Below the pieces are notes generated by a model. The model did not search any database and had not been told where the DNA came from. It saw nothing but the letters and a program-made list of their open reading frames with translations. 64,000 bases of DNA from positions 5,079,709 to 5,143,708 of the forward strand of contig CAJINV010000002.1 in NCBI GenBank assembly GCA_905178155.1. Reading direction: 5' to 3'. Origin of the DNA: Amoebophrya sp. A120. Its lineage: Eukaryota; Protista; Dinoflagellata. Of this stretch, positions 1-49,500 are shown piece after piece. The position numbers and the translations under genes were made by a program. How positions within the stretch are numbered: position 1 is the first letter of the stretch; each line of letters begins with the position of its first letter.

Positions 1-3000
1 CTTTATTGCACATAGAAAAACAAGAACAACGATAAGCACATCTTTCGTTGGCAGCAAGCAGCCCATGGAGTTGCAACCGGCTATAAGTGGTCTTTGTGCT
101 GGGTCGATGTTCTGTCTGCCTTTTTTGCAACACCACAAATTGAATTCTTGTCATTGCTGGCTACTATTTTCTATTTGATACGACGGTTCTGGACGGCATG
201 GATTTAAAAGATGGGGAGTTTATTGCGAACACGGTAGAAGCGGCTTTACTAGACGACGACGCGCAAACCTTCGTCGTCGAATTTGACAATCAAGTCATCG
301 GGTAAGTACAAGCGTAAATTTGTTTTTACTTGGTGTCGCAATTATAGGAGTTTGAAACAAGTTGTGCCGGCGGCAATAGAGGTCGCCGTCGGAAGAATCG
401 CTGTCCGTATGTGGAACAAGGGGCTGCTAAAACAAATTTTGTGTGAGGACAAATAGTGAAAAGTATTCATCAACATCAGGACGAAACAAAGAACACAGTG
501 ACTTGTTTTCATCTGAGGTGGAAATGCAAATGAATCACAGATGTTGAATTCAATTTATCCGTCTGCAACTACAGCGTCGTCGGGAGCTCCTTGGTGAAAG
601 ACGACTATTTAGAGACGCTCCGCTGCGTGTACCAAGTAGACCGGGCGGTCAATTCGCCAGAGTACAATTCCTTTGCGTTTGTGGACTTTTTCCTCGTGAA
701 CCCCATCTTTGACATTTTCCGACGGAAGATCCTCCACCTCTGCCAGCTGATCGCCGGCAACACGGTCTTTTTGTACGAGGCGCCTATCCAGTGCAAATAT
801 CTGTGTCTGGGTCTGGAAGAAGTGCAGAAGCAAGAGGACAAAGCTTGCTCTAGTTCATGCAACACGTAATTTTCATCGTGTCAACCACCCTGAGCATCAC
901 AAGTTGCACTGTTCCAGGCCCAGACATCACATTGGCAATGCATAGCGCAGCTCACCACGCAAATCACAGACGACCCGATCGAGGACCATGCGGGCTCCGT
1001 GCACTCCGGCAGCCCACTATGAAAGTGCACAGCGCGCTCTTTTTTCTCATTTGTCATGCAAAATGTCTAAACTTCGTCTTCGACTTCCCATCCGGGCCGT
1101 TTGGCCGTGTTTGCATGACAAGTTCATCTGGCAGCCCAAACTGGACTACAGTCCCGGCTTAGATTTGTCATGCATGAGCTGTTTTTTGGAGGTTGTTTGT
1201 CTTGCAGTTGCTAGACTGCACCGTTCGAAAAATGAGACTGGAGGGGGACTAGTTGTGCACGGTCATATTCCCACACCGAGGGCAAAGGCAGTCCCTTCGA
1301 GGAGGGATCTCTATCCCGGCAGATGTCCAGCGCGGCGCCCTTATGTCAGTGTACAACCACTCCCCGGAGGACTCCTCTCACTTGTATAAAGAACATTCGG
1401 GGAAAAAATAAATGCCGAGTCCAGTCTGAGGTCCAGATAAGTAGGTGGACGGGCTTGCATGTCATGCGGAAGCTGCAGTTTGTATGTCGATAGAAAAATT
1501 GTCCTTCGAACGAAAGGGATTTAGGGGGGATTGATTGTCCATTCTCATATCCCTTTGCCCCGGAGTTGCCGACCGGCATGTCAAAAAAGGAGTTGATTGC
1601 GTTGAAGAAAAAGCAGGAGGTATCCAGGAAAAAAACTGTGTAAGTGTAACTGTGTAGGAAAAGCAGCATCACAAATTACCTTTGCATTACAGGGAAAGTC
1701 TGTCATGCGCAGCTAGTACGTGGAAACACGTATGAAAGTAGCGTATGACGCAGATCCAGCATGACAAGTATAACAGTTTTGCACCTTCCGCATCACAGAT
1801 TTACACTCACATACTTTTTTTCTTGCATAGGAGGCGGAAGCGGCCGAGGCGGCAAAGGCCGCGAAGAAGGAACTGGATTCCCTGGAGCGAAAGGGCTACA
1901 AGCAACTGGTCGACAAAGACGGCAACCTGCTCCCGCTGTCAACCATAGTCAAGGAAATGACGCCCATTCCACCCAGAAATTCTCCCAGCCTAATGGTCAC
2001 GCACCACGGCGGCCAGTCGCCGAGCTCCCCTTCGGCAAAGGCAAAGGTATGACATTTGATTTTTTTCAAACTCTATAAGGGCTTGGGTTGATTTATTGTC
2101 GGTGTGTTTCACTACTGTATTTATCGAACGATCATTGTAGACCAGGACTCTGCTGCTTGTGTCTGTGGTGGTGGTGCTCTCTGTGCATATTGATGCTGCA
2201 GCGACTGTCATGTGGGAGTGGGCGCTGCACCAGCAGCGCGATGCAATCTAAGTTTAGAGATCATTTGTGTTCGTCAACAACGAGAAATTCAAGGGTTTTC
2301 TACTGCGATTAAGATTTCAGTACTGTAAAAATAAATTCAGCCACACTCCTTCGCTTCTCTGCCGGTGGAGCCACAGCAGCAGCAGGTAGACGCGGAGAAG
2401 CGGGAAAAAATGCGAAAACTGGCGGAGAAGAACGGGCTGTCATTATTGGCCAGGCCGCGACTGTCCGCACCGAAACGGGACGTGAACGCGCGAATAGTAG
2501 TGGTCGGCGCGAGCCACACGGGTCTCAGTTTTTTGTTGTCGCTGCTGCTGCCAAATTACCAGCACCTGCAGTTCAACAGTTTAACGCTCGTCGCGCCGGA
2601 ATTGAAGTAAGATTTTTGTTGATGTGGGAGTCAGTTTGATGTGGCATGATGGGTTCGCTAGTTTTGTTCTTTGTCGCCTGAACTGTGTTTGTCTTCTTTT
2701 CCCGTTCAGAGGGAGCTCTTCACCTTCGCAAGTGAGCAGTGGACATCTTCTTGAACGTAAAAAGAAAATTCCAAAAACACAGCCCAATATCGGGAGTGTC
2801 GTTGAGTCCGAGCTTGCGGCCGCTGATATCCCGCAGAAAAAAGCGAGCATGCCACATCGATAGCTGTAAGATGCAAGGAGAAACACATTTTACAAAAATA
2901 TTTCTTTATGGTTTGGCCCATAGCGGGGGCGTGTCGGTGATGTAAGACACATCGTTTTTTTTTTGCGTGTGTGCTGTTGCATTTTTTGCCTTTGCTACTG

Positions 3001-6000
3001 CTAGCTTTTTTCTGCGCCATAGCGGAACGAAATTGATCCGGTGCTGCTCCGTAGACTCAAAGCGGACGTTCGGGTATATCCAACAGAAAAGTTGTACCCG
3101 CTCCCGCACACGAGAAAAAATTGCCTTGCGGATTTTGGTTTTACAAAAAGGCTCTTTGACAGTTCTGCATGGGAATAAACGCATCACAAACTGTATTTCG
3201 CAGGGCAGCGCATCAAGAGAGATTGTCTCCCTTGTCGTGCTCGTCTCCGCATTACAGAGCTTTCAGTGACACGACCGTAAGTAGCAACGCAAGAAGTGTA
3301 TGTTCTTTTCTGTGTGATAGGGTAAAAGTTTTGCGAGACCGCGTGCGGTACCAAATGTAAAAATGTCTGGGTCTGGAAGAATGCGCGATTTCTCATGTAG
3401 CTTTTCCATGACCCATGAAGCCTGGAATGCAGGACCTAGCATGACAGATTCTGTGCGATCTCTCTCATGCCTATCCTGCGTGAGAAACTCCCTCCCGACT
3501 TGGTTAAAACTGGATGACTTTGGGTAATCATGCAACACAGATTTTTGCATGCTTCGGATTTAGCATGACAAGCTGCATTCTTCCAGACCCAGACATTTTT
3601 ACATTTGATATGAGGGAAATTGACCGGGCGCAGAGAGCGCTGGTGCTGGAGGGCGACAAGGCGAGTTTGCTGCCCTACGACTTCCTCGTGCTCACACCTG
3701 GTCTGCAGGTACTTCGGTTTTTCAGTATTTTGTCAACCACGACATTTTCAACAAGGCGTGGACCGTTTTGCCATGCGAAGCTCGGAAACAATCAAGAAAC
3801 ACACAAAATTTGATAAACCCCATCCTCCAGGACTGCACACTGTCCGCAGATCAGATCCAGCTCCGATCCTTATCCGGGGGAAATTTGATGCCAGTGTCTG
3901 AGTTGATAGAAGGGGAAAAAAAATTGAACACACACTCGCGGTCATGCACTTTTACCCGAAATGTCTAATATAAATGGCTGCATGCGGCGCATCGAATTTT
4001 TGTTTTTCTAACAGTAAAACGAGTGAGTCTCGGTGGCTAGGCAAAGTAGGCGTGCAGTCATTGGTCTTTTATGAGCACGTGGGTGGACGACCAGCACCTG
4101 CAAGCAGGGTAGGAAGCATGACAGGTTGATGTAGTTGACCGCATTTTTTATCATTTTTTTCCTTTTTCTATACCGTGTAGACCCTGGTGGCAGCACTATT
4201 TCCTTCCATAGTCCTACGGGTTCAATAAGTCTGCCGTTTGGCAAATCGAAACGGCGGACATCAAGGCCAAGGCGCTCCAGAGGAAAAAGGAGGAGGCGCA
4301 GAAGGAGAAGGAAGCGGAGGAGCAGGCCAAGCTGGCCGAAAATAAGAAGCCCCGATCCGCGGCGGCGAGGCGGTCGAGTAACCAGTCCCAGGCCGAGGAG
4401 ATGCAGCTTGCAAACCAAAAGGCCGCGGAGGAGAAGGCCCGAGAGGAAGAGGCCATGCTAGACTATGCATTGCAAATATCGTCTCTGCTGGGCTTGGAAG
4501 ATTTTTCAGAATGTAATATTCATTCATGTGTTGCTTCCTTTGCCTTTCTGTACGTCCACGTGCATTGAGCCGCAAAACAAGTGCCGCATGTTTTGCCAGT
4601 AACACAGGTTTTCTTGCAACTCCTTTGCATGCGAGTCTGTGATGCTGATAAGTACTAGGCCATGCATTTTTCTAGACTTTGCGGGGCAACATGCTAGACT
4701 GCCTGTATGAAGAGAAACAGACCCTCCAGGAGGCATGCTTGCTTGCAGTGGATACAGAAGCGACCCGACCGATCTTCGACCCGGAGACCGAACCGGCGAC
4801 GCTGAACGGCGTGCTGAGTGTGGGGGATCCACGCTTAGGCGACTTTTTCGCAGAATCCGGCACGTTTGTTATCAAAAGGAAAAATCCCCCCTCCCCATAT
4901 CAAAACGAAATCTCTGATGCTGGATTTGAGTACACAAATCAGCTTTGTTTTGCAGGAAAGCATTGCAGTCAGATCCCCAGGCTAGGTAGGGGCGTATGCG
5001 TCTAGTTGGTCAGCATGGCAAGCGGCTCCCCTTTAGGCCCAACAGCATGACAAAGCGCTTCCGTAATGGGGCGGAAGCTTCTGCCCTTGTTTTCTTATTC
5101 TTGCAAAACAAATGCGATTTGTGACCTCAAATCAGCAACGCAAATTTTCGGAAGCATGCCGTTTCAATATGGGGAGGGGCGATTTTTCCTCTCAATATTT
5201 GTGAAAGCGCTGATCTGGAACCCGCTCACGCAGATTTGCGTGTACGGCAATTCTATCAACTGCAAAAATGTCTGGGTCTGGAAGATTAGAACTTGTCATG
5301 CTAAATCTAAATGATGCAAAAATCTGTGTTGCGTGAGTGCCAAAAGCTGTCCGCTTTTGACCAAGTTGAGAGGGAGTTTCTCATGCAGGAAAGGCATGAT
5401 AGAGACCTCAAAGAATCTGTCATGCTGGGTCTCGCATTCTAGACCTCGTGGGTCACGGAAAACCTGCATCACAAATCTGTTATGACAGACCTCGTGGGTC
5501 ACAAATTCTAGACCTCGTGGGTCACGGAAAACCTGTTATGACAAGTCGGATTTAACCTTTCTCAGGTTAAATCCGCATTACAAATTAAGCACTTAAGGCA
5601 AATAAGCACTTCGTAAGAAAAAAGCACCTCGTTTGTGTAACAGATTTCCCTTCGTAAGACATAAGCACTTCGTAAAACGTATCGCAATTGCCCTCGTAGA
5701 AATACCAAGCAGATACTACAACAGACTAGCAGCGTGCGGGGGGAGACCAATGTGGTCTCCCCCCACCCGCTGTGACTCTTAAAAAACACACCAGGGAACT
5801 TCTTTTTTTCCAGCAGAGGCTGGTCGTGGGTTGTGGGGATGAGAAATAGAAGCAATATGCTAGCACGATTTGAAGTCAGACGTAAGCTCTTTAAGATTTC
5901 CGCTTCGCTTTATTTCAGTTTTACAGCACAGACTAGCAACTAGATACAGACTAACAGGCACTAAGTTCAGAAGAAAACACTACGAAGAGCGAAGATCTGC

Positions 6001-8579
6001 CTGCTAGCGCGGACATACGACACGCACGCGGGGGAGGAGGGGGAAAACGCAAGCGAAGCGAGAACAAGACGCGCAGCACAATGTGCTGGAGCAGAGGACG
6101 AGAGCAGATAGTAAGAATATCAAAACAAGATGAAAAGCGCACGCATACACGCGCACTGCTTAACTGTGTGAAAGGTGTCGGCCCTGTTTGACCTGCTGCG
6201 GCAGGCAGGTGAATTCGTAGAACTGCTTCACATGTTAAGTAACGCACACCGGCCTCCTAGTTTTAGTGATGAGTTTATATGCGTCAACAGAGCGGGGCCC
6301 AATCAAAAAAAAAAAAAAAAAACCTGCATCACAAATCTTGCATTCTTCCAGACCCAGACATTTTTACTTTCGATAAATTCGCTGGAGGTGTACACGGTCA
6401 TCCAAGGCTTGCTGGTCAGAAAAGTTCCGGCTTCCAAAATACTACTGGTGCAACCGACACAGACGGAAGCCAGCTCTAGCAGCTCGTCGAGCAGTTCCTC
6501 CTCTCAACAGCAGCTCCCGCCACCGGAAATTCTCGAGAAAATTGAGCAACAGCTTGAGAAGAAAAAGATCCGGATTTGTAATATCCAGTGTAAATAAATT
6601 AACGTAAGTACCCACAGCCCCATAGTCACGATCTGCAAGACAAATCTGCAATCTGTAGGAGCTGCGGGTGGTAACGGGGCCCCCGCAGGATAGTCGTATG
6701 TAAAGAGCTTGGCCGCATCGGTAAGCCACTTGCAGCTTGTAGTCTTGCATAGAATTATTGTCGTGAGGCAAAGTGACGAAAGGCCAGGAGAGAATGTGTC
6801 TCATGTAACAAGTTGCTGCGCATAAGTTCCTTGGGGTCGTTGTGGACACTACGGTTTTTTAGCACGTGATATGAAAGAATCACACGCTCAAGCGACTAGA
6901 AAAGGACGGACGGGACCGATTGAGTTCGATCGTGTTCATATGCAAAGGAAAAAGTTTACAAGTAGAGTTGCGCACTGTAGAAGACAAACAAGAAGAAGTG
7001 TTGCAGGACAAACAAGACAGACAACCTCTACCATGCCCGGAGTGCTTGCGAGTCTCGTTGCATGCGTGCATTTCATTTTTACGGGCTTCGCATGGCAAAC
7101 GTTCTTTGTCGTGCAGAGCTGCAAGAAGTTTGTGTTGCTAAATTTGCATACAAGTGTGCAACTGTAAATACGCTTTTTGTCTAGGATAGGTCACCAACGA
7201 GGCGAACCACGAGGAGGTCGCGTTTAGTTGCCGAATACTGCTCACCGCGGACAAACTGGACGTGGATCCCGACATTTTCCATGCGCTACACAGCAACGGC
7301 TTGGTGTTTGACGGGGCACTGATAGTAGACCACGCTTTCCAGACCACCGATAGCAGGATATTCGCGGCAGGGCCACTGGCGGAGTTCTCCAGAAGTGCAC
7401 AGAGCAGTTACGTGCACGACCGCCAGCTACTAAGACACGATGGGTACTATCGTCATTTTTAATGAATTTTGTATAATGTGCTTCTTTCGTAAAACAAAGC
7501 GGTTTGAGATCCGATCTATTCACTGGACCCGATTTCGTCTTTATGAAACCGCCCCTCACGCTGACCGTTCCCATGCAACGTGCGCTGTATTTTTTTTTCA
7601 TTTTTGCGGCCTTTTTCGCTTTGAGTTTGAGCAGGCAACGATCATTTGCCAAGCTGCTGGCGTAGCTATTCCACACGTGAAAATAAGAAAACAAAGAACT
7701 ACGCAACAAATCGTATGAAAAATCCTCTGCAGCTACAACGGTATGGAGCTTGGGCAGCACTTGGCTGAGGCCATTTTGAGTAAAGCAGAGATTTACGACG
7801 CGGAGGAGGAAGCGGCAGCGGCCAGCAAGGACTTTACCTACCAAACGCTGCAGATGCCAATATACCGGGCGGGGCTGTTGCCGGGGAATCTGCGCTACTA
7901 CTGCGTCAGGTGTCCGAAGAACGTACTGCAGGCGAGGAAGGAGAAGCAAGTAAAGCACATGCTGACCGACACGTTGTCTCTGGACAGCGAAAGCGGGCAC
8001 TTCTGCAAGATCACGTACTGTCAATTATGAGACGATTAAAAAGCTGTTTCTGCTTCTGGATTCTTGCAGCGTTCCGTTCATAGTAGAAAGACTTTTTGGG
8101 ATTTCTGTTTTTACCTCAATTCTTGTCATACATGTGCCATTCATTCTGGAGGTGGACTGACATAAAAACAAATTATTTCTCTGAATAAAACTCCAAGGTG
8201 CACGGGCAGCACCGTGACGGAATTTCTCTACCTGGGGTACCAGGAGCTCCATCGCCACGCACTGTTCCACCTGGTGGGGCGAAATATTTCCTTTTTGAAC
8301 GGCCTGGAGCAAAGATACGCGAGCGCTGATGGGGCAAACAGTTTCGACCTCGTGGAGTTTCTCACCGACTCATGGACGCACGCGTTTTACCATGACGACT
8401 TCTACGAGGTTTTTGTCACGCAGGCAAAGAAGGAAAATTGGGACGAGAAAAAAATGAAGGACAAGCTGCTCGACTACCTTACCAAGTGCGCGGACTTGCA
8501 GAAGATTTCCTCCTACTACATACCCGGGAAAACGGACGTCGGCATGAGCCTCGGCACCGTCGGGACGCTTGATAACTGA
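1..8579 (+). CDS. CFAP61: Cilia- and flagella-associated protein 61, multi-exon, 5' end lies before the window
   Basis: Exon peptides RIVVVGASHTGLSFL...FNSLTLVAP, EIDRAQRALVL...LPYDFLVLTPGLQ, ICVYGNSLEVYTVIQGLL...KILLVQP, VDPDIFHALHSNGLVFDGALIVDHAFQTTDSRIFAAGPLAEFSR, DLVEFLTDSWTHAFYHDDF match the degenerate FAD/NAD-binding C-terminal half of CFAP61 as I recall it; stop at 8577-8579. Not all exon borders resolved. Confidence 0.85.
785..944. mobile_element. Introner, short family-A-like
   Basis: tatcc...gtctgggtctggaa / ttccaggcccagac...gcata; DR gcgcc/gcgca; removal gives LYEAQLTTQITDD. Confidence 0.8.
1018..1267. mobile_element. Introner, family E (tat..agtgcaca / tgtgcac..cata)
   Basis: TIR tatgaaagtgcaca / tgtgcacggtcata; decayed DR cccac/ttccc; removal of element +5 nt gives GSPHTEGKGSPFEEGSLSRQM. 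Confidence 0.7.
1621..1829. mobile_element. Introner, family D; also readable as GT-AG intron 1620-1833
   Basis: TIR tatccaggaaaaaaa / tttttttcttgcata; perfect DR ggagg; splice gives KKKQEEAEAAEAAK-like acidic/Ala-rich frame. Confidence 0.85.
3349..3610. mobile_element. Introner, family A (262 bp), reverse orientation relative to 52418-52679
   Basis: TIR taccaaatgtaaaaatgtctgggtctggaagaa / ttcttccagacccagacatttttacatttgata; DR tgcgg/tgagg; splice gives RDRVR-EIDRAQ. Confidence 0.92.
4870..5197. mobile_element. Introner, family B (328 bp)
   Basis: TIR tatcaaaaggaaaaatcccccctccccatat / atatggggaggggcgatttttcctctcaata; perfect DR tttgt; splice gives ESGTFVKALIWNP. Confidence 0.92.
5254..6375. 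mobile_element. Introner, family A, enlarged by a nested retroposon
   Basis: Family A TIRs, perfect DR aattc; splice gives VYGNSLEVYT; 1122 bp minus the 860-bp insert = 262 bp, the family A length. Confidence 0.92.
5479..6338 (+). mobile_element. Poly(A)-tailed non-autonomous retroposon, copy 1
   Basis: 20-bp TSD aaaacctgcatcacaaatct (5459-5478, 6319-6338), A18 run at 6305-6322, 3' ~160 nt shared with 42829-42991. Confidence 0.85.
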
Positions 8580-10665: not shown

Positions 10666-11101
10666 ATGCCGAAGAAGCTGCCAGCCATCGCCGCCGCGAC
10701 CTGCCTCCTCGGGGGGGGGGGGGCGTGTTGCGGCGCTGCAGAAGACGGCCACGAACACCCGTGTCTGGGAAGGGAATGAACAGCACGGGCAGGTGCGCCG
10801 CGCTCGTGCGCAGAAGGGGAAAGCGGTAGCAGCGCACCAGACCAAAAAGGAAAAAGCTCGCGCGGAGAAGGCGGAAGAAAGCCACCAGTCCAAGAAGAAG
10901 AAGCAACAGTGGGCTGATTCGATCCCCGGGGAGGCGGAGTTCGACCATGCGGTCGATCCGATTTTCGGTTGGCTTCATGTGAACATCATTAGGCCGATGC
11001 GGCAATTTTTGGAACAACATTCACGGGGAACATCGGAACCAACGTCAACGGGAAACGCCCCGAAAATCGAAAAAGAAGTCGTCGAACCATCGTCGAAGTA
11101 G
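10666..11101 (+). CDS. Small hypothetical protein, possibly secreted, frameshifted at a G13 run
   Basis: ATG 10666 MPKKLPAIAAATCLLGGG joins ORF 10793-11101 if the G13 run at 10711-10723 is read as G12. Confidence 0.5.
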
Positions 11102-13391: not shown

Positions 13392-16300
13392 ATGTCGGTC
13401 GTTTCTCCGACGTTCCTCAGGTCCTCGTCGAGCTCCGCGGTCCGCATGCTGGTCGGGACCCGGTGCAGCATTTCGTCTCGTCGACCCGGCACAAATAAGA
13501 ACTACAGTGCGACGACGAAATTTTTCTTCCCCTCGAAGAACAGCCCGCCCCGAAGCTCCTGCAGCCACAACGACCGACGTTTATTTTCCAGCGCTCTGAA
13601 CCCGATGCCGGCAAGTGGCGAAGGACCACACGACAGCAAGCACGAAACTAGTAGTACTTCCGGGCGGTTGCAAACCGCTTCTGTATCGCTGTCCTCGCCG
13701 CTGCACCTGCCGCTTTCGGCCGTGGACTCAGAAGTACACGCAATCATCGAGATATGCAAGAGAAAACTGTGTAAAAACTGCAACTTCGTGTTGCGTACGC
13801 ATGTAAAATTAGAAAATACAGTTATCACTACTTTATGTCATTCTGCTGGAAGATCCAGATGCAGCCTAGGCTAGCCTCATACGTACCCGTGCTTTGACGG
13901 ACTACCCGCGCATGACCTCATGCCAGACAGATTTGCTATGCTGTGTCCACCACCTCAAAAGTAAAACGAAAAAGAGTTGTTGTACTACCACAGTTTTTTT
14001 CTTGGATGCGAGAAGGAGAAGCAACGGCAGAAATTTTCTATCAACCTGATTGCCAGCGAAAACTACACCAGTCAGGCGGTGTTGGACGCCTTGGGCTCGG
14101 TCATGCAGAACAAGTACTCCGAGGGGTATCCCGCAGCGCGGTACTACGGTGGAAACGAATTTATCGACGAGGCGGAACTGCTGTGCCAGAAACGCGCCCT
14201 GGAAGCGTTTGACCTCGATCCGGCCGAGTGGGGCGTGAATGTGCAGGTTTTTTCCGGGTCGCCCGCGAACTTTGCGGTTTTCTTATTACAATGAAAAATG
14301 CCTCCACCCCCGAACTTGGGAGCATTTGTATTGCAAACCTTTCCAAGTGAAACACTCCCCCTCTTGCATCTATCAGCATCACAGGTTTTCAATCGTTAAT
14401 AGCAAAAATTTGTATTGCAAAAGACCCCAACAAGAGCGGTCATGCAAGCGATGCGATACACGCCTACATTCTACATCAGAAAGATTCATACTCCGTTCAT
14501 GCATGACAAAATCTTTTCATTTGGAAACTTCGCATCACAAATTTTTGCAATTTAGGGGTGGGGGGCACTTTTCACTGTAATACTTCTCCGCACTGGTCGA
14601 GCCACATGGCCGCATCATGGGGTTGGACCTACCGCTATCCTGTGTAAAAACGTCCCCACCTCCTCTCCGGTAGACTTGTCATGCAATAGATACAACTCGA
14701 TGCGTCACGTAAAATCGTTCTTGTGCGCAGCTCCATCGGAAGCATTTTCAATTTATCGGTGTTTTGGAATTTTTCATGCTACAACCAAGGAGGTTGATCA
14801 ATTTGTAATGCAGCTGCACTTTCTAAGTAAACACTGTCAGGCGCAACTACACGCAAAGCTTGCCGGTTTGTGTAGCAAAGTGCCCATCTTGACTCTGCGG
14901 CGGGGACGTTTTTGCTTAGCATAACCGCACGGAGGCCACTTAAGCCACGGGTTCCAGACGCCACAGAAAAAGATCTCGTTTGTGTCCAAGTTTTGGGAAA
15001 CCATGCCGTACCGACTGGACGAAAAGACCGGCCTAATCGACTACGATCAACTGGAGTTGTTCGCAAAAAGGTAAATTTGTTTTAGAAGCGAGTCGAGTGT
15101 TATTACTTCTAGCATTTCAAAATATTCGCATGACGAGAAAAAGAGAAGCAGATGACAATCAAAGGGGACCATGCTAGTACTACCCTTCTTGAGAACTGCA
15201 TCCTTTCTCAACAATTTGTGCACATTATCAAGAAAGGCAAACGTTGCAACCACTATAGGTTTCGTCCGAAGCTCATCATCGCGGGTTGTACGGCATACTC
15301 GCGAATCGTGGATGTGCCGCGCTTTATCGTGCGGAAAACTTCTACGTGTTTCACTGTGACGCTTTCGGAAATGACAAGCTTGGTGTTGCGCTTGCATGAC
15401 AACGAAAATTCATCACGTGGGGTACTGGATTTATTTTAGGGGACGAAAGTAGTACTGCTAATGCTAAATGTAAAGATGCTCCTTCGTGTATTTCCAGCTA
15501 AGCAAGCACTTCCTTCCTGCAATCTTTGCAACAGTCAGAGAAACCGTTTTTCCCCGCGATAATCTTTCGGCAAATTTGCGACGAGACGGATTCCATCCTG
15601 CACTATGACATGGCGCACATTTCCGGCCTGGTCGCGGCCGGGGTCGTGCCGAGCCCGTTCAAGCAGGGCGCGGACGTGGTGACCAGCACGACACACAAAT
15701 CCCTACGTGGGCCCAGGGGCAGCTTGATTTTCTACCGGAAGGGCTTGAAGAAATCCGCCGCGCCGGCGAAGGGAAAGAAGGGCGGGGCGCCGAAGGAGGA
15801 AGTGTACGACTTGGAGAAGAAAATCAACGAGGCCGTGTTCCCGGGCTTGCAAGGCGGACCCCACAACCACTCGATCACGGCGCTGGCTGTGGCGCTAAAG
15901 TTATCGTAAGGAAAAATCCCCCCTCCCCATATCGAGAACGTATCCGTCTGAAAATTTGTGATGCGCATTTGTGACCTCAAATCCTGTCTGTCTTGCAAGA
16001 AGGCATGTCCAGAAAGCGTTCCGCATTTTGCAGGCGGTTTGTGATGCTGTTGGGCTAAGAGCATACGCGTTCGTCATGCTAGGCGCCTACGTCAAAACCT
16101 CTCGACTGAGGCTTGGCATATGCCTGCAGTCCTCTACTGCGCGACGCATCTGATTTGTGTATGGAAATCCAGCATCAGAGTCTTCGTTTCGATATGGGGA
16201 GGGGGGATCTTTCCTTTTGATAAAAGTTGGCGAAAACCCCGGAATTCCGGGACTACCAGCAGCAAATCTTGAAGAATTGCGCAGGTACAAGCGTGGATAA

Positions 16301-25229: not shown

Positions 25230-28200
25230 ATTGGCACACGGTGCGCGCTTCGGATTTTTGTTTTGGAGGGGCGCGGGCGTCCTCTCGTATTCTGCCTGCG
25301 CTTGGCGCCGGGAAAATGGCATTGCGCCTACCGCGCGCGCTTCCCTAGGCGCCGTCGCTGACAGTGGTGATGGTATGCGCGTGCCCATTCTGTATTGCTC
25401 TGTGGCCGGGAGAAAAATTTGGAGCGCCGCGCGCACGCAGACACCCTGGCCCGAGCAGGGGGCGGATGCTTCCTTATTTCCTTTTGCTATCAGGGGCCGG
25501 CCGAAAAAAAATTTTCGCGCGCGCCGCGCCCACTCAGGCGCGCGCCATGACCGGGCAGGCGTAGAGGCCCTTCCCTATGCGTGCCCGGTAGCCGCGCGCT
25601 TGCCGAGAATTTTTTTTCGTGCACAGCGCATGCGCAAGCGCTTTGGCCTGAGGGCGTGGAAGGTATTCTTTCGTGTCCGGAAACCCGGGGCGGGCCGGAA
25701 AAATATTCTGCGAGCGCGCGCTGCGTGTGCGCAGACGCCTTGGCGGGGGGGCGCGGAGCGAATGTTTTTTGCGCGTCCAGCAGCGAGGGCGGCGCGCCGG
25801 AAAAAAAAAAGTTGCGCGCGCGCGCATGCGCATGCGCCCCGACCTGAAGGCGCGGAAGCCTTTGGTCGTTCCCAGCTATCGAGGGCCGCCCGATCGAAAA
25901 AAGTCTTTCGCCCGTTGCGCGCCCGCAGACGCCTTTGCCTGTCTGAGGGCGGTTGGGTTTTTTTCGCGTCCTCCAGGCGGGGCCTCGGCGGCAAATATTT
26001 GTCGTGCGCTCGCTGCGCGCGCGCAGGCGCCTCGGCCTCGGGGCGCGGAAGGTTTTCGGTGCGTTCGGCAGTCGGGGGCCGTCCGGGAAAAAGTTTGCGC
26101 GTGTTGCGCGCACGCAGACCGCCCTGGCCTTGGGTGAGCGTGGGAGGTGCCTCTCCATGGCCGGCTAAAAGGCGTTGACCGGAAAAAACCTCGCGTGGGT
26201 GCGCCGCGCGCATCCTCACCATGTACGGCGTCAGGGTGTGGGCTGTTTTATTTTTTTCGCGCCCCGCGATCGGGGGCCGGCCGGTAAAAAATTTTCCGCG
26301 CGCACAGCGCGCGCACGCCTTGGCCCGAGGGTGTAGAAGATCTTTTGCTCGCCCGGTGGTCGGGGGCTTGTCGAGAAAAATTTTTCGCGAGCCGCGCGCG
26401 CACAGTAGTTTTCTTTTGGCCCACAGGCGAGGAAAGTCTTTTCCGCAACCGGGCGCCAGTTGAAAACAAATTTTCGCGCGCGCGCGCCTGCGCGCGCGTC
26501 TTCCTTGGCCTGAGGGCGTGCGTAGACGCTCTTTTTCACGCCCGGCGGGGGTCGGGGGCCTGTCGAGAAAAAATTATCGCGCGTTGCGCGCGCGCGGGCA
26601 CATTAGTTTTCTTTTGGCCCGTAGGCGATGAAATTTTTTCTCGCAACCGGGGGCCAGCTGAAAAAAAATTTTCGCGCGCGCGCGCGGAGCGCGCGCGTCT
26701 TCCTTGGCCTGAGGGCGTGCCTGGGCGCTCTTCTTCACGCCCGGCGGCCGGGGGCCTGTCGAGAAAATATTTTCGCGCGTTGCGCGCGCGCGGGCACATT
26801 AGTTTTCTTTTGGCCCGTAGACGAGGAATTTTTTTTCCGCAACCGGGGGCAAGCTGAAAAAAGACTTTAGCGCGCGCGCGCGCCTTCCTTGGCCCGCGGG
26901 CGTGCGTGGAAGGTTTTCTTCTCACCCGGAGGTCGGGGGCTTGTCGAGAAAAAATTTTCGCGCGCTGCGCGCGCGCGGACGCATTAGTTTTCTTTTGGCC
27001 CGTAGGCGAAGAAATTTTTTTCCGCAACCGGGGGCCAGCTGAAAAAAAACTTTAGCGCGCGCGCGCTGCGCGCGCGCGCCTTCCTTGGCCCGAGGGCGTG
27101 CCTGCGTGGAAGGTTTTCTTCTCACCCGGAGGTCGGGGGCTTGTCGAGAAAAAATTCCCGCGCGCTGCGCGCGCGCGGACGCGTTAGTTTTCTTTTGGCC
27201 CGTAGGCGAGGAAATTTTTTTCCGCAAGAAATTTTGTTTCCGCAACCGGGGACCAGCTGAGAAAAAATTTTCGCGCGCGCGCACAGCGCTCGCGCGCCTT
27301 CCTTGGCCTGAGGGCGTGCTTGGAAGGTTTTCCTCTCACCCGGAGGTCGGGGGCTTGTCGAGAAAATATTTTCGCGCGCTGCGCGCGCGCGGGCGCATTA
27401 GTTTTCTTCCGGCCCGTAGGCGAGGAAATTTTTTTCCGTAAGAAATTTTTTTCCGCAACCGGGGGCCGGCTGAAAAAAAACTTTAGCGCGCTGCGTGCGC
27501 GCGCGCGCCTTTCTTTGCGTGGGTGAGTCAGTGGCTTGAGACTTTTTTTCACGCCCGGCGGCCGGGGGCTTGCTGGAAAAAAAATATCGCGCGCTGTGCG
27601 CGCACACATGTTGGCCAGGGGGCGCGGCGAGGTGTTGCTTGCACCCGGCAACCGGGGCTGCCGGAAGAAATAGAGCAAATTTTCGCCACCGCCCCCTGCC
27701 CGCCCGCAGGCGCCGGCCTTGGTCTGCGGGCGGGCGCGGAGGTTTTTTTCGCGCCGCCCCCTCGGGGTCTTGCCGGGAAAATATTCGCGGCGCGCAGGCG
27801 CCTTGTTCTGGCGCGCTTTTGCTTGCGTCCGGCGTCCGGGCAGTCCCGGAAACGACTTTCGCGCGCCGCGCGCGCGCAGCCGCCTTAGCTTGAGATGGGC
27901 GCAGAAAGTTTTTCTTCAATATGAGGAAAGCTGTTCGCCTGCTAGCAAGGTGATGACGATGGTGATGAATCGCGCGCGGCTACCGGGTGTTGGCCGGAAA
28001 AAAACTTACCGCGCGCTGCGTGCGCATAGTGGCCGTGGCGTTAGAGGGTGGGCGGGGCCGCTTCTTTCGTGTCCACGATTGGGGGTTTGCCGGAAAAAAA
28101 ATTCCGCGCGCTCCGCGCGCGCAAGCCTTTGTGCGGAGCCTTTCTCTCCGCCCGGCATTCGGGGGCGGGCTGGCGAAAATTTTTCGCGCGCGCGCGCGCA

Positions 28201-28640
28201 CATGTTGGCCCGGGGGCGCGGTTGGGGACTTTTTGCGGACCCGCCCCCCTTCCGGGGCCGGCCCGGCTGAAAGAAAGAATAAAGTAAATTGTTCGCGCGC
28301 TGCGCGCACGCAACCTCCTTGGCCTCCGGGCCCGGGGCGTTTTTTTCGCGCCTAGCAGCCTGCGGCCGGCCTGGAAAAACTTTTTGTGCGTAACTTCCTT
28401 GGCCTGCGGGCCCGGCCGGAGTGTTTTTTCCGCGTCCAGCCTTTCCTTGGAGGCCCGCAGGGGAAAAAAAATTTTGCGCGCTGCGCGCACGCAGGCACAT
28501 TGCCCCGGGGGCGCGGGGCGTTTTTTTCGCGTCCGGCCGTTGCTGGCTTGCCGGTCGGAAAAAAAGATCGCGCACTGCGCGCACGCAGGCAGACTGGCCC
28601 GGGGGCGCGCACGCAGGCAGACTGACCCTTATGCCTTACC
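25230..28640. repeat. Degenerate GC-rich satellite of (CG)n tracts alternating with A/T tracts; homogeneous core 26300-27520
   Basis: tagttttctt(t/c)(t/c)ggccc recurs near 26407, 26604, 26800, 26985, 27185 and 27399 (spacing ~185-215 bp). Confidence 0.9.
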
Positions 28641-28726
28641 TGCAAAGAGCAAGGGCCTCGCCGTCCTTTTTTCGCATCTTTTCACTGTAGGTGAGCGCCC
28701 AGCTCCTCGGGGGGCCTAAGCGTCCG

Positions 28727-29120
28727 GCTTCTCGTAGCCGGAGAAGCTGGACTTCCAGCTTCTCGTAGCCGGAGAAGCTGGCCTTCCAGCTTCTCGTAGA
28801 GCCGCCCGGGGAAGCTGGACTGTCAGCTTCTCGTAGAGCCGGGGAAGATGGACTTTCAGCTTCTCGTAGAGCCGGGGAAGCTGGACTTTCAGCTTGTCGT
28901 AGAGCCGGGGAAGCTGGGCTTTCAGCTTCTTGTAGAGCCGGGGAAGCTGGACTTCCAGCGTCTCGTAGAGCCGGGGAAGCTGGGCGCCCAGCTTCTCGTA
29001 GAGCCGGGGCAGCTGGACTTCCAGCTTCTCGTAGAGCCGGGGAAGCTGGACTTCCAGCTTCTCGTAGAGCCGGGGAGGCTGAGCTGCCGGCTTCTCGCAA
29101 CCAGGGAAGCTGGACTGTTA
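28727..29120. repeat. 33-bp minisatellite, about 12 copies
   Basis: Unit cttctcgtagagccggggaagctggacttccag in tandem. Confidence 0.93.
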
Positions 29121-29159
29121 GCTGCTCGGAGCAGGAGTGCTGGCGTTCTGGCTGCCAGA

Positions 29160-29646
29160 ATCTAGAAGCTAGATTTCTAGATTTCTAGAACCTAGAAATC
29201 TAGATTTCCAGACTTCTAGATTTCTAGATTTCTAGAAATCTAGTTTCTAGATTCTTGGCCGCCAAAGTCTAGAAACAAATCTAGAGGCTACGGAACCCAG
29301 AACCGCTATCCCAATAGACGTTCTGGGGTCAGAAGCTCTATTGCAATAGACGTTCTGACTCCAGAACCTCTATTGTGATAGAGGTTCTGGGTCCAGATGA
29401 AGGTACGAGATAGAGCTTCTCAAGCTAGAAAATGTCAAGAAACAGTGAAAAGATTAGAAAAAAAACAAAAAAATCAAAGAGCAACGAAATCAGTAAGAAA
29501 AATAAAGAAAAGAAGAAAAAAGAAAGACTGTAGAAAATCTAGAAAAAGCTTAGAAATCTAGAAAACCTAGAACATCTACGGAGAAGTTAGAAAATGGCCG
29601 AGAACCTCTATCAATAGAGGTTCTTTGAGAAGTTCTTGAATATTTT
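29160..29646. repeat. TTTCTAGA microrepeats and agaacctctat/atagaggttct palindromes
   Basis: Repeated tttctaga/tctagaaa at 29160-29290 and 29530-29580; inverted pairs near 29363-29388 and 29601-29624. Confidence 0.8.
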
Positions 29647-30147
29647 AACTTAAGTGACCCAATATGCACAGACCGACGCTAGTTGTTGTTGGCTACACCC
29701 AGGCGGCATCTTCCTCCTCGAAGCGACAAGTTTTGGAAGAAGAAGGCGACAGCCATGCGGAATACGCGGACGAGAGCCTTATCATGCTGAAAACTGCTCC
29801 TACCACGGAACGGGGAAGTGTCTCGGGCATTACAAAGCTTTCCGATGGGAGCAGATACTTATCAACTTGCAAATGCTAGCAACACAAAATTTCGAAGTTT
29901 CTTGTCGCAACACCAGCTTCCCAATAAAACCAGATTTGTCTTCTGCTATCCGTAAGTTACTTTACATGCTTTTCTTTTTATTGATCTGTAGAAGGTCGCG
30001 GCCGCCCGGACGTCCTGCCGGTAGCTCTCCGATGTCATCTGCATCCTGCTTAGCTCGCTCGAAATGTGAAGGAAAAAGAATGCTAGTACTTGTCATGCAA
30101 GACAGAACTGGCCTTTGGCTGAAGTTGAAATGGTTTTTTCCAAGATC

Positions 30148-36620: not shown

Positions 36621-37977
36621 TCTATATACTATAGGGGCAAGATATGTATTTGTTCCTCCCAAAGCTTCTGAAGGTTTGACCTTCTGAAGACCTTCTGACG
36701 CTCAAAACTTGATTTTTGAGCTTCAGAAGGTCAAAAAAAATAGTCGTCTACTTTTCATGTTAAAAAACGCGGAATTAGCTCTCGTAAATCAAATTCTGGC
36801 TCATTTTTTACATCCTTCAGAAGGTCCAACCTTCTGAAGGTTTTTTTTCACCTTCTGAAGAATTTTCTCGATTTTTCGACAAAAAAACCTTCAGAAGGCC
36901 AAAAAATGACTTTAGAAAAGCCTCAGAAGGTAGGCATTCTTCTGAAGGTTTGCTTCGTTTCATGAAATTGCAAACCTTCAGAAGGTTGCGAGTTTTTACA
37001 CGCAAAAAATGAACAAAAGTCGAAACACCTACAAAAACCTTCAGAAGACGAAAAATCTTCTGAAGGTTTTTCACAAATTGTCTCGTTTTTAAAAAAATGC
37101 AAAAATCTAAACTCGCACACCTTCAGAAGAATTTGACTTCTCATTCTTCTGAAGGTGGACCTTCTGAAGACTCTCCAGAAGATATTGCACAAATTGGCTT
37201 TTTTGATGTGCGCGAAACTGTTTACTCGACTAAAAAAGGCCTCTTTTGTGACAGCCATTGTTCAAAAAATGAAACAAACCTTCAGAAGCTCTTCAGAAGC
37301 TTCGTCGCTGTTTGCATTTTGAATGCGCAGTTGCTTTTTTTCCAGCGCAGACGACAAAAATGCAAAACACTTAAGCCAGCTTTTTTTTCATGGCTCGGAA
37401 CCTCCCGATAGAATAGCTCGGCGGAAAATTTTCAATGCTCTTATTGGGGGAAGATTTTCGCTTTCGGGCCTTCGGCCGCGTCCGACCGACGCAGCTACTC
37501 GACGAGGAACCGCTACGCCGCATCAGTCTGGCGATGGAAAGGCAACAAGTTGGAAAAAAAAAGCGAAAGAAGTAAGATGCTCTCGATGAGATCTCAGTGA
37601 GATTTCAGCGAGTCTCGCTTTAGAAAAAGTGAGATCTCAGCGAGATCTTACTTCCTAAGAAGTCTCACGGTCCGAATCACTTCTCCGAGACGGCCAAAAA
37701 GTGAGACTTTGAAAAAAGTAAGATCTCGCTGAGATCTCACTTTCTGAGACATCGCACTTTTGGGCCGCCAAGCGAGATTTTGAACAAAGTGAGAGCTCCC
37801 TGAGATTTTCTGAGAAGTCTCACCTTTGGGCCGCCCGAAAGTGAAATTTTTAAAAAAGTTGTGAGATCTCACTCCTTTTCCGGTGTGGCAGTGAACAAGT
37901 TCTTTTTTCTTTCATAACCCACGGGAAGAACAAATACAATGCTTGCCCCGCGACGCAGTCGCGGGGAGTGGTTCTTA
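36621..37977 (+). mobile_element. Non-autonomous Helitron/Helentron-like element
   Basis: 5' TCTATATACTATA after an A; 27-bp subterminal inverted repeat 36634-36660 / 37923-37949; 3' hairpin ccccgcgac-gca-gtcgcgggg 37946-37966; interior arrays of CTTC(T/A)GAAG and GAGATCTC. Confidence 0.65.
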
Positions 37978-41301: not shown

Positions 41302-44300
41302 ATGTCGCAATCTCTGTTGCAGCAAGAGCAAGGCATCAAGACCGCCGAGGGGGGTGGTGTACCTCAGAAGACGGAACACCACCACCACCGCCGCAGTCAC
41401 GACGGAGCGCACGTTCCGAACCACTTCAAACACCACGGCAAGCACAAGCACCACCACCACAAGCACAAGCACCACGGGCAGCAGGACGATTCCGCCTTTC
41501 TGCAGCGCGACAACAAGGCGACACCTGCGGCGGCGCCGGACCAGGCGGGCGGCGCCGCAACCGCGCCCATGAGCGGGTCGGTGCCAGGACCTGCGGACGC
41601 GGGGGCCGCTGGAGGAGCGGCGGCTGCGAACAACCCCGGTGCTGGTGCGGCTTACGGGCAGCAGCCGCCGCCGGAACTACAGCAGCCCGCTGCGAATGCT
41701 GCTGATGCGCCGCTGCCTCCCGCGGGGCCGGGCTCCTTTTACAACCCCCCGCCCGCCATGCAAGACGGCGCGCCGCTGCAGCAGCCCCCTCCGGGCCCGG
41801 GTACGCCGATGCCGGGCGAGCAGTTCCCGGCGAACAATTGGGGGCAGCAGTATAACCAACCCGGGGGGCAACCGCTGCCCTACAACCCGCAGTACAATCC
41901 GCAGTACAATCCGCAGCTGAATTACCAGGACTACGCGCTGCAGCAGCAGCTTCTCCAGCAGCAGCTCCTTCAGCAGCAGTACCAGCAGCAGAACAACTTT
42001 CAGCAGCAGAACAACAACAATAACTACCCGCCGCAGATGCCCCCGCCGGAGTTTGCCGCTGCAGCGGCCCAGCAGAATGCGGGCAACAACTACCCGCCGC
42101 AGCAGCTCCCGCCGAATTACCTGCCGCCGGAGTACGCGAACGCAGCTGCGCAGAATGCTGGCAACACCTACCCGCCACAGCAGCTGCTGCCCTCGATATC
42201 CTGAGTAAAAACGTACCCACACCAGAGTCAGAATGGGGATTTTGCAACACAAACCTAGGAGTTTTGTGAGTCACGCATGACAAGTTGCACTCTGCAGTGT
42301 AGTGCAGGTTAGCAAGTGCAGCCGCGTCACAGATTCATCTGCTCATCCTGTTCACAGCATCACAAATTCCAAAACACGATTGGAAATGGCTCTCATGTTG
42401 ATGCGCATTACAAGTCTTCCTGTCTTTGCAAATCTGCATTACAACTGCTCGGCTGTCCCCCACTTCTTAGATTGTCGTCAAAGATTAGAGTAGTGCTATT
42501 CCATTACCGCCTTCGCGATATTTTTTTAGCGGACCCCGCACATTATCCCTGATGCGTTTCCCGCTTAGTATTGAATGTCTTTGACTCAAACACATAAACG
42601 CGCCTTGCTACGGCACACCTCATCTGCCTAGTCGCCCCTAGGTAGGTGCAGGAATTTTCTGTGTGGGCTTTTTGTGCTGAATTATTCCAACAGGGGCTGC
42701 GTTTTTTTTTTCTGCCTTGCCAGCAGAGTTGTACAGATGGGGGGGAATTGACGGAAATGGAGCGAGACCTTGGTGACGGACCAGACGACAAGAGCGGAAA
42801 TGGTACAAATCAAAAAAAAAAGATGGTGTACACGCGCACTGCTTAACTGTGTGAAAGGTGTCGGCCCTGATTGACCTGCTGCGGCAGGCAGGTGAATTCG
42901 TAGAACTGCGTCACATGTTAAGTAACGCCCACTGGCCTCCTAGAAGAATAGTGATGAATTTATATGCGTTTTTTCAGCGTGGGGCCCAATGAAAAAAAAA
43001 AAAAATCTGCATTACAACTCTGGTGTGGGTACGTTTTTACTCAGGATACTCGAGCACGAATTTTCAGCCGCCGCCTCCGAACTTCGAACAGCAGCCGCCG
43101 CTTGCAGCTCCTGCTCTATCACATGTAAAAATGTCTGGGTCTGGAAGATTGGAACTTGTGATGCTGCGTCTGCATTATCCAAAAATCTGTATTGCATGAA
43201 CAGCAAAAGAGGCCTGGCTTTGGCCACGGCGAGAGGGCATTTCTCATGCGGTATAGGCATCAGAATGCCCTCACAATATCTGTGATGCTAGGGCATGCAT
43301 CGCAGACGTCAGGAGTCACGCAAAATGTGCATGACAAACCTTGCATCCTTCCAGACCCAGACATTTTTACATTTGATATGCTCCGGTCGGGAACAACAAT
43401 GTGGCTGGCGGGCTCCAAGAGCAGCAGCCGCAGCAGCCGGGCTTTGCTCCCGCGGCCGCGGCTCCCGGGACGGAACAACCCGCACAACCGCAGGAGCAGC
43501 AACAGCAGCCCACGGCTGGTTCATCTACTTTTGCGAACAACGACCGGCAGCCGCCCGCGGCGAACAATGTTGAGCAGCCTCCGGCCGGCGCAGCGCCAGT
43601 GGCGACGCCCAATCACGGCGCACCGCTCGTGCCGGAAGACCCGACCACGACACCGCCCCCGCGGGAGCAACATCCGGATGAACACAAGCGCAGCACCGAC
43701 CGTCCCTACAAGTCGGCGGCGCCGCGGCCGGGGAACATTTTCATGACGGGGAACGACAAGGACCAGCTGCACAAACCCGTGGACTTGAAGAAGCACGACC
43801 ACCTGTTTCTGAAGCCCGAGAATTTCGCCAACGCCGACGCGTTTTTCAGCACCGGGGACCCGGACCAGCTGGCCGTGACCGCGTCGCACAGTGACGTATC
43901 AAATGTAAAAATGTCTGGGTCTGGAAACTTGTGATGCTAAAATGTGCATGATGAAAACACTTCCGAATGCAGTCCGGCATGACAACTTCCAAAAACGCTT
44001 TCTCATAGGCAATCCGCATGAGAAACTGCGTTTTTGCATGACAAAAGAGGCTGCGACTTTTGTTGGTTTTGCAATACAGATTTTCTAGGTATGGAAAGCC
44101 AGCATTACAAGTTCCAACCCTCCAGACCCAGACATTTTTACAATCCATATGACGCGTTTCTCTACTACGTCCTGCCCCTGGTGCTCTTCATCAGCTTGGT
44201 CTGCATCGCGAACATGGCCATGGAAATGTTCACCGTGAATGACGCGCTCGCGCTGTACAACCGAAAAAACCAGAAGGACTCGAAGCAAACGCGAAAACCC

Positions 44301-44408
44301 AGCGGCGTTTTCAAAAACTTCTTCAGAAACGGGAACAACGGAAGGGGGAACTCCCGCGACAAGAAGAAGCACGACCGCACTTCGGGCATGGAAGAAACGC
44401 TGGTGTGA
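41302..44408 (+). CDS. His-, Pro- and Gln-rich protein with a C-terminal transmembrane helix, 4 exons
   Basis: Three introners removed give one continuous frame ending HSDAFLYYVLPLVLFISLVCIANMAMEMF...GMEETLV*; true start may be upstream. Confidence 0.8.
42197..43048. mobile_element. Introner, family C, enlarged by a nested retroposon
   Basis: Perfect 32-bp TIR tatcctgagtaaaaacgtacccacaccagagt; perfect DR ctcga; 279 bp without the insert. Confidence 0.93.
42447..43019 (+). mobile_element. Poly(A)-tailed non-autonomous retroposon, copy 2
   Basis: 17-bp TSD aaatctgcattacaact (42430-42446, 43003-43019); A14 run at 42992-43005; 3' module homologous to 6146-6304. Confidence 0.85.
43117..43378. 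mobile_element. Introner, family A (262 bp)
   Basis: Family A TIRs; perfect DR tgctc; frame restored (PAPVGNNN). Confidence 0.93.
43897..44149. mobile_element. Introner, family A
   Basis: Family A TIRs; perfect DR tgacg; frame restored (HSDAFLYY). Confidence 0.93.
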
Positions 44409-46506: not shown

Positions 46507-49500
46507 ATGCAGTATCTCCGCTCTGCACTGGGCCAGGTGCTCAGCAGCGGCGGCTCGGTAGGGTCCTCTGGAGGTGGTGGGGATTATGGTGCGGATATTT
46601 CCCACCAGCCCACCAGCAGCTCCTCGTCTTCTTCCGCGAAACCCAAAAACACCACCACGCCGGCAAAGCTGGCGAAGTACATAAAACTCCTGCAACCGCT
46701 GGGGCTTTTCGAAGAGCACAAGGAGCGCTACGCAGACTTGATTCGCAAGGGCTCGGTGGAGGAGGAGATGTTCAATATCACGGGAAACGACATGATGAAC
46801 ATGAATCTGATATGGCAAGGAAAAATCTCCCCTCCCCATATTCAGAACGCAGCCTTCTGAGAATTTGTGATGCAGATTTGTGGCCACAAATCCTGTCTGT
46901 CTTGCAAGAATGCAAAGCCAGAGAGTCCGCCGCGTTATAGAGGCGATTTGTAATGCCGTAGGGCCTCCGGGGCAGATGTCTGCCATGCTAACTTCCTACA
47001 CCAGATGAAGACCCCTGCCCAGGCTTAGCATCTGCGTGCAGTGCTCTACTGCAAGACAGATCCGACTTGTGTACACAAATCCCGCGTCACAGATTTCCGT
47101 TTTGATATGGGGACGGGGGATGTTTCATTTTGATATTTCATCCTCTCACGCATCGTTGACCTCCGAGAGCTGTCCAAGCTGCTCTGGTCGGGGGCACCGG
47201 GAGAGTATCCACACCTGCGGGCAATAACCTGGCGGCTCCTGCTCGGGATAGCCCCCAACGCGAAAGACAGGTAAGCACGTCGAACGAGAATCATTTCTAA
47301 AAGGCTCTGACGAAGAAGAAAGGTAAAAACAGATACAGAAGAAAAGTGATACGATATTGTTTTCAACATATGTCATGACTTACACAAAAATCGCAATTAT
47401 AGGCACCTCTCTACACTTGCGCGGAAGCGTCGCGAATACCACGAGCTGTGTCGGTATGAAGCGGAAAAAATAAATCTCAAGTCGTGCTACTGGGGTAAGT
47501 AAGTACAACTGGATGTTGTGAAACAATGCGAACAATTGAGACGACACTAGTCTTTTTGCAGCAATGTCCGCAGAAAGCCACGCTTTCGAGCGGGGTCCTG
47601 GTGTACGTGCTGTGAAATATGATTTGGCTGAACTACCTCTGCTGCACAACTTTTCTTGTCTCTCTTCCATACCAGACAGCACTGGCGGCCGAATATGTCG
47701 ACTACGGCAGGCGATGAGCAGCAGCTGATCCGACAGATTCGGGTCGACCTACCGCGGACGTCAGCAGGCGCGCTCCAGCCTTTGTTCCAGGAGGAAAAGA
47801 TCCACGCCATGATGGAGCGGATCCTCTTCGTTTGGGCCTTGCGGCACCCGGGCTGCGGCTACGTGCAGGGCATCAACGACCTGCTCACGCCCTTTCTGGT
47901 CGTTTTTCTGGCCGAGAAGGAAGAGGTATCACAGTGCACAACTCGTCGTGGTCCTCTTCACTTAAAGTTGTACATGAGCAGAAAGAAAAGCTGCGCCGGG
48001 AGAAGCGTGGCTTCCGCATGACGAATATTCAGCACACGGATTTTTGTGCGTGGTACTGTTTCAAGAAAATTTATTGCCATGCAGAAGCAAGTGCATAGAA
48101 GAGGCAGACGTGGTATTTTGCATCCCAAATGTTGAGGGGGAGGGGGAGTTGTGCACGCTCATAAGAGGCCGCGCTAAGCAGCAGCGGGAGCAGGGCCGCG
48201 AGTAACAGCGCTGCTCACCTCCAGGGTCCCTCGGAGGGAGACCTCCAGGCGGGACTGTCCAGAAGCAGGAGACAGACGAAGTCGGTCGATTACGAGCAGC
48301 TGCGCATCGATTCCTTTACGGACGAAGAGCTCGCGGATGTAGAGGCCGACAGCTTTTTGTGTCTACTAGGCAAAGGAAGAAATTTGTCGTAAAGTAAAAG
48401 TACCAGAGAGAGGAGTCAGTCAGCGAAAATAGAGCTTAAACGATTGCTCTGCTGTCGTGGCAACAAGCATCCATGAACTAGCAGCTTTTGGAACAACTTT
48501 GATTCATCTCATCTGGTGTCTACTATCACCGAAGATCAGGAATGAAACTACAACCACTCCGTAGTTGGAGAAAACAACAGCGAATGAAGTTCTTTCTGTC
48601 TTTCATACTCCACGAAAATGCTGGACTCCATGCAAGACCACTACACGCCGAACCAGCCGGGAATACAGCGCATGATGGCCGCACTGAAGACGCTTCTGAA
48701 GCGGACCAACATGCAGCTGGCGTCACACTTGGAGGAGTTGCAGGTTGAGATGCTGTATGGATGACAAAAATATCCGGGTCTGGAAGGGCGCTAAACTTTT
48801 GGTGCTGAACTGGCATATTAAGTACCCCTGAAGGTGGCTGTATTGCGTGATCGTGCGGAAAAATCGCGCTGGTGCTTTGTCATGCAAACGCGCACCTTCG
48901 TTCTCATGCACGTTAGCGTTACGGCGCACTACAGGTACAGAGTCGCTCAGAAATTTCTCGTCCGTGACTGCGTACCGTTGTCATGTTGTCATTCATGTAC
49001 TAGCGTGAGCTCTCGTTTCCAGACCCAGATGTATTTGCATTTGAGATGCTCCAGGTGTCGTTCCGCTGGTTCAACTGTCTGCTCGCACGGGAGATACCGA
49101 TCGAGTGCGTAATCAGGCTCTGGGACACGTACTTGTTTTTTGATTTGGTTTGAGGAACATCCAGGAAAAAAGATGTTGGCGTCACTTTTACTTTCGCTGC
49201 CGTGGAAGTGAAACAGTTATTTTAACATGAAACCACAGCTACATCGCGGAACTGCACGACCGGCCGTCAGATTTCGATCAGTTTCTGACGTTCTTCGTCA
49301 TGAGTTTTCTGAATCATTTACGGACACGGAAAAAGCATGAAAATAAGCGTCCCGTCAGTTTCTTATGCACTGCACTTACTCGATAGCCTTGAGTAGAGAA
49401 GGGAAAGCAGTGTTATGTCATGAATTTGGCGAATCGCTTCGCAGACATCAAAAACGCTTTTGATAAAAAAACTCGGGCCAGTGCTTTATCTGCAGTTTTC

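Follow-up and report, generated by a model that had tools for sequence, protein, structure and literature searches.

The introners of Amoebophrya sp. A120 have been described by Farhat et al. 2021 (PMC7789003; here and below, what is said of a cited paper refers to the part of it that was available to us) as elements of ~240 nt whose inverted repeats (IRs) consist of TAT, 7 nt and an A-run, with direct repeats (DRs) of 3-5 nt lying over their borders. That study put the number of repeated non-canonical A120 introns at 29,850 and left their borders and splicing mechanism open; its text and the legend of its Fig. 3 describe the splice positions as variable and the border as unknown, and no cognate transposase for these elements is reported there. 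We have analyzed a 64,000-nt stretch of the A120 genome (contig CAJINV010000002.1, positions 5,079,709 to 5,143,708 of the forward strand; hereafter the window) in which 38 elements bounded by TAT...ATA terminal inverted repeats (TIRs) and 5-nt DRs were retained. These are the published introners: position counts over the 38 elements recover an IR opening of TAT, 7 variable nt and an A-run, and the 5-nt DRs (3-5 nt in PMC7789003) are identical in 18/38 window elements and in 87/99 copies from outside the window. As the elements are already published, the remaining question is their splice register.

Comparable elements have been reported from other organisms. Class 12 introner-like elements of Polarella glacialis carry a 5-nt target site duplication (TSD) and, at NNAGG sites, have a donor formed by the final TSD base together with the first base of the element and an acceptor that lies within the TSD, which is the same register as the one described here (bioRxiv 10.1101/2020.10.14.339549). 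However, the Polarella class requires a G and an AG from its target site, whereas the A120 elements require neither. The nonconventional introns of Euglena also have paired ends, like those of miniature inverted-repeat transposable elements (MITEs); these ends lie at fixed distances from the exon borders, and the terminal bases are free (PMC12501133). They differ in following the pattern N3-CDG ... CH'G-N5-6, in having a purine at the exon start and in bearing no likeness to a GT donor, and the machinery proposed for them is non-spliceosomal; neither the Euglena motif nor the exon-start purine is found in the A120 elements, which read N-TAT ... ATA-N4 before any first exon base. Introns of Fritillaria borealis are transposon-derived, non-GT/AG and removed by a U2-type spliceosome (PMC13326754). 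These are mostly AG-AC or AG-AT, in an organism that keeps U1 and has divergent U2AF paralogs, whereas A120 elements keep U at +2 and A at +3 and free both +1 and the acceptor. For the A120 introners themselves PMC7789003 gives variable borders, while the mismatched repeats of the same elements indicate here a single register; the variable-border view is repeated or, in the available parts, left unaddressed in reviews and in an Amoebophrya genome paper from 2025 (PMC11282704, PMC11453091, PMC12005148, PMC9860276). No statement of a fixed A120 register was found in the literature searched, although subscription papers and Farhat figures 3, S19 and S23 might contain one. The elements are already known; the splice register is well supported and apparently the new part.

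A single register at introner joints

Insertion of an introner generates a 5-nt target duplication, and each splice joint can be described by k, the number of the 5 DR bases that are retained from the left copy. With k=4 the intron opens with the single base that precedes the left TIR and closes with the fourth base beyond the right TIR, as a preliminary description of this DNA had proposed. Joints were scored in public contigs in two sets: the 15 listed out of 36 joints (11 elements and 4 ordinary introns) and the 15 listed out of 47 joints, the latter including 8 RNA joints (6 elements and 2 ordinary introns) together with contig pieces that give a seventh element. Seven joints of the second set were repeat artefacts from a DNA-like run and were not used. 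The elements are skipped by the RNA-like contigs (runs X1-X4) and are present in the DNA-like run X5, which is unspliced across 47092-52125; the same TIR occurs at 132 loci in a public collection.

The value k=4 is compatible with 18/18 introner joints, 11 of them informative and 7 uninformative, with identical repeats. Every other fixed register is excluded, since k=0 (the whole right copy retained), 1, 2, 3 and 5 (the whole left copy retained) fail 10, 8, 7, 4 and 3 of the 18 joints, respectively. Under a uniform distribution of k in each element, this result would have a chance of 2e-4, or 1.4e-3 on non-G donors only. Spliced contigs lose exactly the element plus 5 nt, with DR bases 1-4 contributed by the left copy and base 5 by the right copy, so the proposed register holds.

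The introner introns of the window that are listed below by coordinates lie on the + strand. The joint at 48366-48611 (CT..CC) has zero sliding room and sets k at exactly 4; this non-canonical intron has the exact form N-TA...ATA-NNNN with a DR identity of 0/5, and since its TIR is non-significant (8/20, p=0.35), k is defined there on the TA and ATA motifs. Spliced contigs give k of at least 4 at 46810-47139 in a TBC-domain gene (AT..TC), at most 4 at 48755-49050 (GT..CT) and 3-4 at 47454-47675, a decayed introner-like intron (GT..AG, DR GTCGG/CCAGA) with a TIR match of 13/20 (shuffle p=0.012). At 50770-51071 (CT..GC) contig pieces at 50769/51072 give k of 4-5 (k>=4). Wider ranges come from 2826-3025 (AT..GG) and 3348-3614 (GT..AG, DR TGCGG/TGAGG), both with k of 3-5, from 3870-4214 (TT..CC) and 14283-14586 (TT..TC, in the SHMT gene), both with k of at least 1, and from 47926-48167 (GT..AG, identical repeats AGAGG/AGAGG), where the joint can slide by 6. 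The element at 15324-15565 (TT..CT) lies in the same SHMT gene, whose identity was confirmed; there the left repeat copy encodes Arg-Phe and the whole right copy would encode Ile-Phe, and it is the left bases that remain in the spliced contigs (k>=2), as anticipated.

Beyond the contigs, a public protein model that is transcript-derived, with annotation by BLAT, adds k<=4 at 784-948 (CT..GC, DR mismatch at position 5), where it has Gln, and at the decayed element 4463-4758 (CT..GA), where both the model and an ortholog have Glu; it also gives k>=3 at 6581-6875 (AT..AA) and k>=2 only at 1017-1271 (CT..CC). Comparison with the A25 ortholog yields Trp at 60812-60972 (CT..TG), hence k<=4, and Gly-Leu at 59139-59433 in a WD40 (WDR33-like) gene (TT..CA, repeats fully decayed), hence k of 3-4. 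Among the mismatched repeats at which the preliminary description predicted this outcome, the TIRs starting at 46811 (RNA), 785 (public model) and 60813 (A25) agree with it, and the one at 1018 is indecisive.

Donor, acceptor and the machinery of removal

Read at k=4, the 38 elements have A at +1 in 12 cases, C in 9, T in 9 and G in 8, and their ends make up 27 classes; 34/38 are without the GT..AG ends expected of U2-type introns and are spread over 26 of these classes. As the preliminary description had suggested, the +1 base and the last four bases are free. By comparison T is found at +2 in 38/38 elements and A at +3 in 37/38, a constancy partly built into how the elements were found, and 15/15 ordinary introns checked start with GTA, matching the introner N-TA and the GTA-like donor proposed in the preliminary description; 11/15 of these ordinary introns have C or T at +4. 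The donor context with U at +2 is therefore canonical-like, as in U2-type introns, and the nine predominant A120 classes in Table S4 of PMC7789003 all have T at +2. At the other end, the last four bases follow no sequence rule and the first exon base is any of four. An in-frame AG formed by the last TIR A and a G, 3 nt upstream of the acceptor, is ignored at 2826, where it belongs to a skipped in-frame TAG, and at 50770, where two nearby AGs are skipped. All 38 elements have A at -7, as do 10/15 ordinary introns (p=0.03 against 0.4).

From these data we consider it probable, at roughly 0.6, that these MITE-like introners are removed at a single fixed register, likely by a relaxed U2-type spliceosome. 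We infer this machinery because UA falls where ordinary donors carry GUA and because most spliceosome parts occur in A120, in which 83/89 spliceosomal proteins and U2, U4, U5 and U6 were found and U1 was not found (PMC7789003). The donor would be read via U at +2 and A at +3, which ordinary introns also have in their GTA, and the acceptor would be set not by AG but by how far it lies from a signal in the right repeat or TIR; a rather doubtful candidate for the branch point is the A at -7. A bolder formulation, which we regard as conceivable though somewhat unlikely, is that the A120 spliceosome no longer requires either the G at +1 or the terminal AG. It would read only N-U-A at the donor and locate the acceptor by a fixed ruler from the TIR-supplied A 7 nt upstream, such that an insertion of this family at any place in a gene would be excised cleanly from the outset and the tens of thousands of introns described as "variable" would follow one code. 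A single register brings dozens of seemingly different splice-site classes under one rule, which corrects annotation, and it indicates where branch points should be sought. It also accounts for the ability of a transposon family to invade coding exons with no need for an AG or a G at its target, and it provides a natural experiment on the intron bases that are dispensable for eukaryotic splicing.

A number of observations weigh against this reading. The register evidence consists of assembled contigs, which display the dominant form only, and the RNA-like contigs come from one sample whose RNA status was guessed by a tool. Only 11 joints are informative, and an upper limit of k<=4 comes by RNA from only 3, two of them with GT donors, so that without 48366 this limit would depend on two G-donor copies only. 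At the decayed intron 49318-49513 (TT..TG, k>=4 from spliced contigs) the donor fits N-TA and the acceptor, a partial exception, fits only loosely, 3 nt after the best-aligned TIR end. The element at 61054-61276, identified from sequence only, has a left end TCT and is the sole element without A at +3, carrying C there. Among the outside copies, an asymmetry test for an invariant A at -7 gave one counter-example, L002, whose likely coding strand carries G there, and L086 may have A at +2. The conservation of TAT and ATA is part ascertainment and part transposon origin. Finally, a 2025 introner survey lists A120 families with mixed ends, TSD lengths of 2-5 and three mechanism labels (PMC12130899, 19 of 58 A120 rows).

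The same fixed register could instead be set by a TIR hairpin, with a separate, non-spliceosomal activity that cuts and joins at distances of 1 nt and 4 nt from the stem in an Euglena-like manner. This alternative, which we consider unlikely but the main rival, would account for the free last four bases and the ignored AGs, and it would suit both the undetected U1 and the genetically defined code of paired motif plus spacer in Euglena (PMC12501133). Compared with shuffles, folds that pair the element ends are significant at 50770 (z -3.66) and 47454 (z -2.1), but the fold of 48366 is no better than shuffles (z -0.86). The latter intron is nevertheless cut exactly, so that neither DR identity nor a significant stem is needed in every case, and short sequence signals are favoured over stem geometry. 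Moreover, several spliced copies (3348, 13752, 48755) have disrupted terminal pairs, and the register puts TA exactly at the GTA position of ordinary introns.

Less probable still is that the register is a usual outcome only, with cuts varying among elements or isoforms. The variable sites in the Fig. 3 legend of PMC7789003, the mixed ends of the surveyed families, the partial exception at 49318 and the dropping of minor forms by contigs would fit such variation; against it, k=4 is excluded by 0/18 joints. We also considered published end counts (Table S4 and the 19 of 58 A120 rows in PNAS Dataset S2) as a test of the register. In a sliding simulation AG and AC acceptors reach 41% and 17%, compared to 29% and 18% as published and 10% and 4% at the true k=4. 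The published AG/AC excess is thus partly sliding inside the repeat, which also reproduces the mixed ends of the survey in part; because borders can slide in this way, the published counts, which the simulation reproduced only in part, were rejected as a test. Direct repeats and hairpins are a known setting for template-switch artefacts, yet an origin of the joints in template switching by reverse transcriptase or in faulty assembly is very improbable, since 26/27 elements would shift or stop the frame if retained, the repeat identity at 48366 is 0/5 and the joined frames match intact orthologs.

Some further features of intron ends were observed in passing. A pyrimidine at +4 is found in 37/38 introner donors in addition to the ordinary donors noted above; snRNP27 is given as "not detected" in A120, and its loss has been linked to a +4U preference in yeasts (PMC10581693). 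The +4 bias together with the undetected snRNP27 is a lead only. Predominant A25 classes in Table S4 of PMC7789003 all start with TT and the A25 IRs with TTA, which would again give T-A at +2/+3 but may reflect aligner sliding. In their last 20 nt, ordinary introns have no polypyrimidine tract and are A-rich from -7 to -15, while introners have a T-run from -15 to -19.

GT-AG copies and the ageing of introners

Four window elements read as GT..AG, as the preliminary description had stated: 3348-3614, 47454-47675 and 47926-48167 through contig joints, and 1620-1833 (identical repeats GGAGG/GGAGG, uninformative for the register) through its sequence and the public protein model. That description went on to suggest that ageing introners turn into ordinary GT-AG introns, and this part is not supported here. 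Two of the four copies, 1620 and 47926, were already GT-AG at insertion given their identical NNAGG repeats, and it is mainly when an insertion hits an NNAGG site that such copies would be expected to arise. Elements with mismatched and intact repeats do not separate in the expected direction, with GT-AG in 2/20 vs 2/18, G at +1 in 3/20 vs 5/18 and AG in 2/20 vs 4/18, and the copies with zero repeat identity (48366 and 59139) are CT..CC and TT..CA. At 3348 and at 47454 both alleles of the AG-making base code for Arg (CGA/AGA at 47454, from the code table), so a synonymous exon change explains these copies as well as a gained AG does.

A set of young copies points the same way. It comprises 99 copies of one family from another public assembly, of which 95 were scored and 85 oriented; the orientation procedure was correct for 17/21 held-out window elements and left 4 uncalled. 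The 85 oriented copies have G at +1 in 27, AG in 8 and both in 4, all at the level of the exon background. The 4/38 GT-AG elements of the window exceed the exonic AGG frequency of 2.4% (p=0.013, post hoc), but they are not above the young outside copies (4/38 vs 4/110, Fisher p=0.20). Conversion of introners to GT-AG with age is therefore not supported. That selection converts ageing introners into ordinary GT-AG introns is a doubtful proposition, despite several points in its favor: the excess over 2.4%, the copy at 47454 that is both decayed and GT-AG, the DR/IR organisation of 15% of A120 canonical introns (PMC7789003) and an age-biased GA-to-GC conversion reported for Symbiodinium (bioRxiv 10.1101/2020.10.14.339549). 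In addition, fully converted copies would be counted as ordinary introns, which would hide a trend.

Gene setting and other features of the window

The 38 elements were retained on the basis of RNA, a protein model, an ortholog, or a clear TIR and repeat. Eighteen have RNA-contig joints, 2 have contig pieces only, 9 are placed by the public protein model and 9 by ortholog or sequence alone; the last include 61463-61738 (AT..CA, DR mismatch at position 4), which was placed by sequence. Initial automated scans gave 35 and 75 candidates, many of them chance pairs, which were not kept. The exon at 576-782 matches, with 100% identity, a 1,667-aa CFAP61-like protein labelled Amoebophrya sp. A120. 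The SHMT, TBC-domain and WD40 genes were assigned to the + strand by their GT-AG introns. A protein search using the last exon of the WD40 gene gave no match, and neither did an Rfam scan of the 64-kb window. No joints fell within 0-2.3 kb, 4.2-13 kb or 53-64 kb among those listed, and the raw-read run X8 covered only repeats, with zero joints.

At 48745-48755 / 49041-49051, and in the outside copy L086, the sequence of the right TIR end recurs in the left exon flank over 10-11 nt and not 5. The right TIR end of these same two copies is altered (AGA, ATT), possibly through a longer duplication or conversion. Two elements are long, namely 5254-6375 (1,122 nt, apparently with nested material) and 42197-43048 (852 nt, TIRs 25/25 identical). 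A TIR-bounded element of 1.3 kb at 36647-37936 has many short internal repeats and ends unlike those of introners. The region 25400-29250 holds a satellite-like GC-rich array with periods of 185-214, after which come tandem repeats of 33 nt and 8 nt. Among the introner-rich genes, an intron-free frame of 887 codons at 54212-56875 encodes a tRNA pseudouridine synthase domain.

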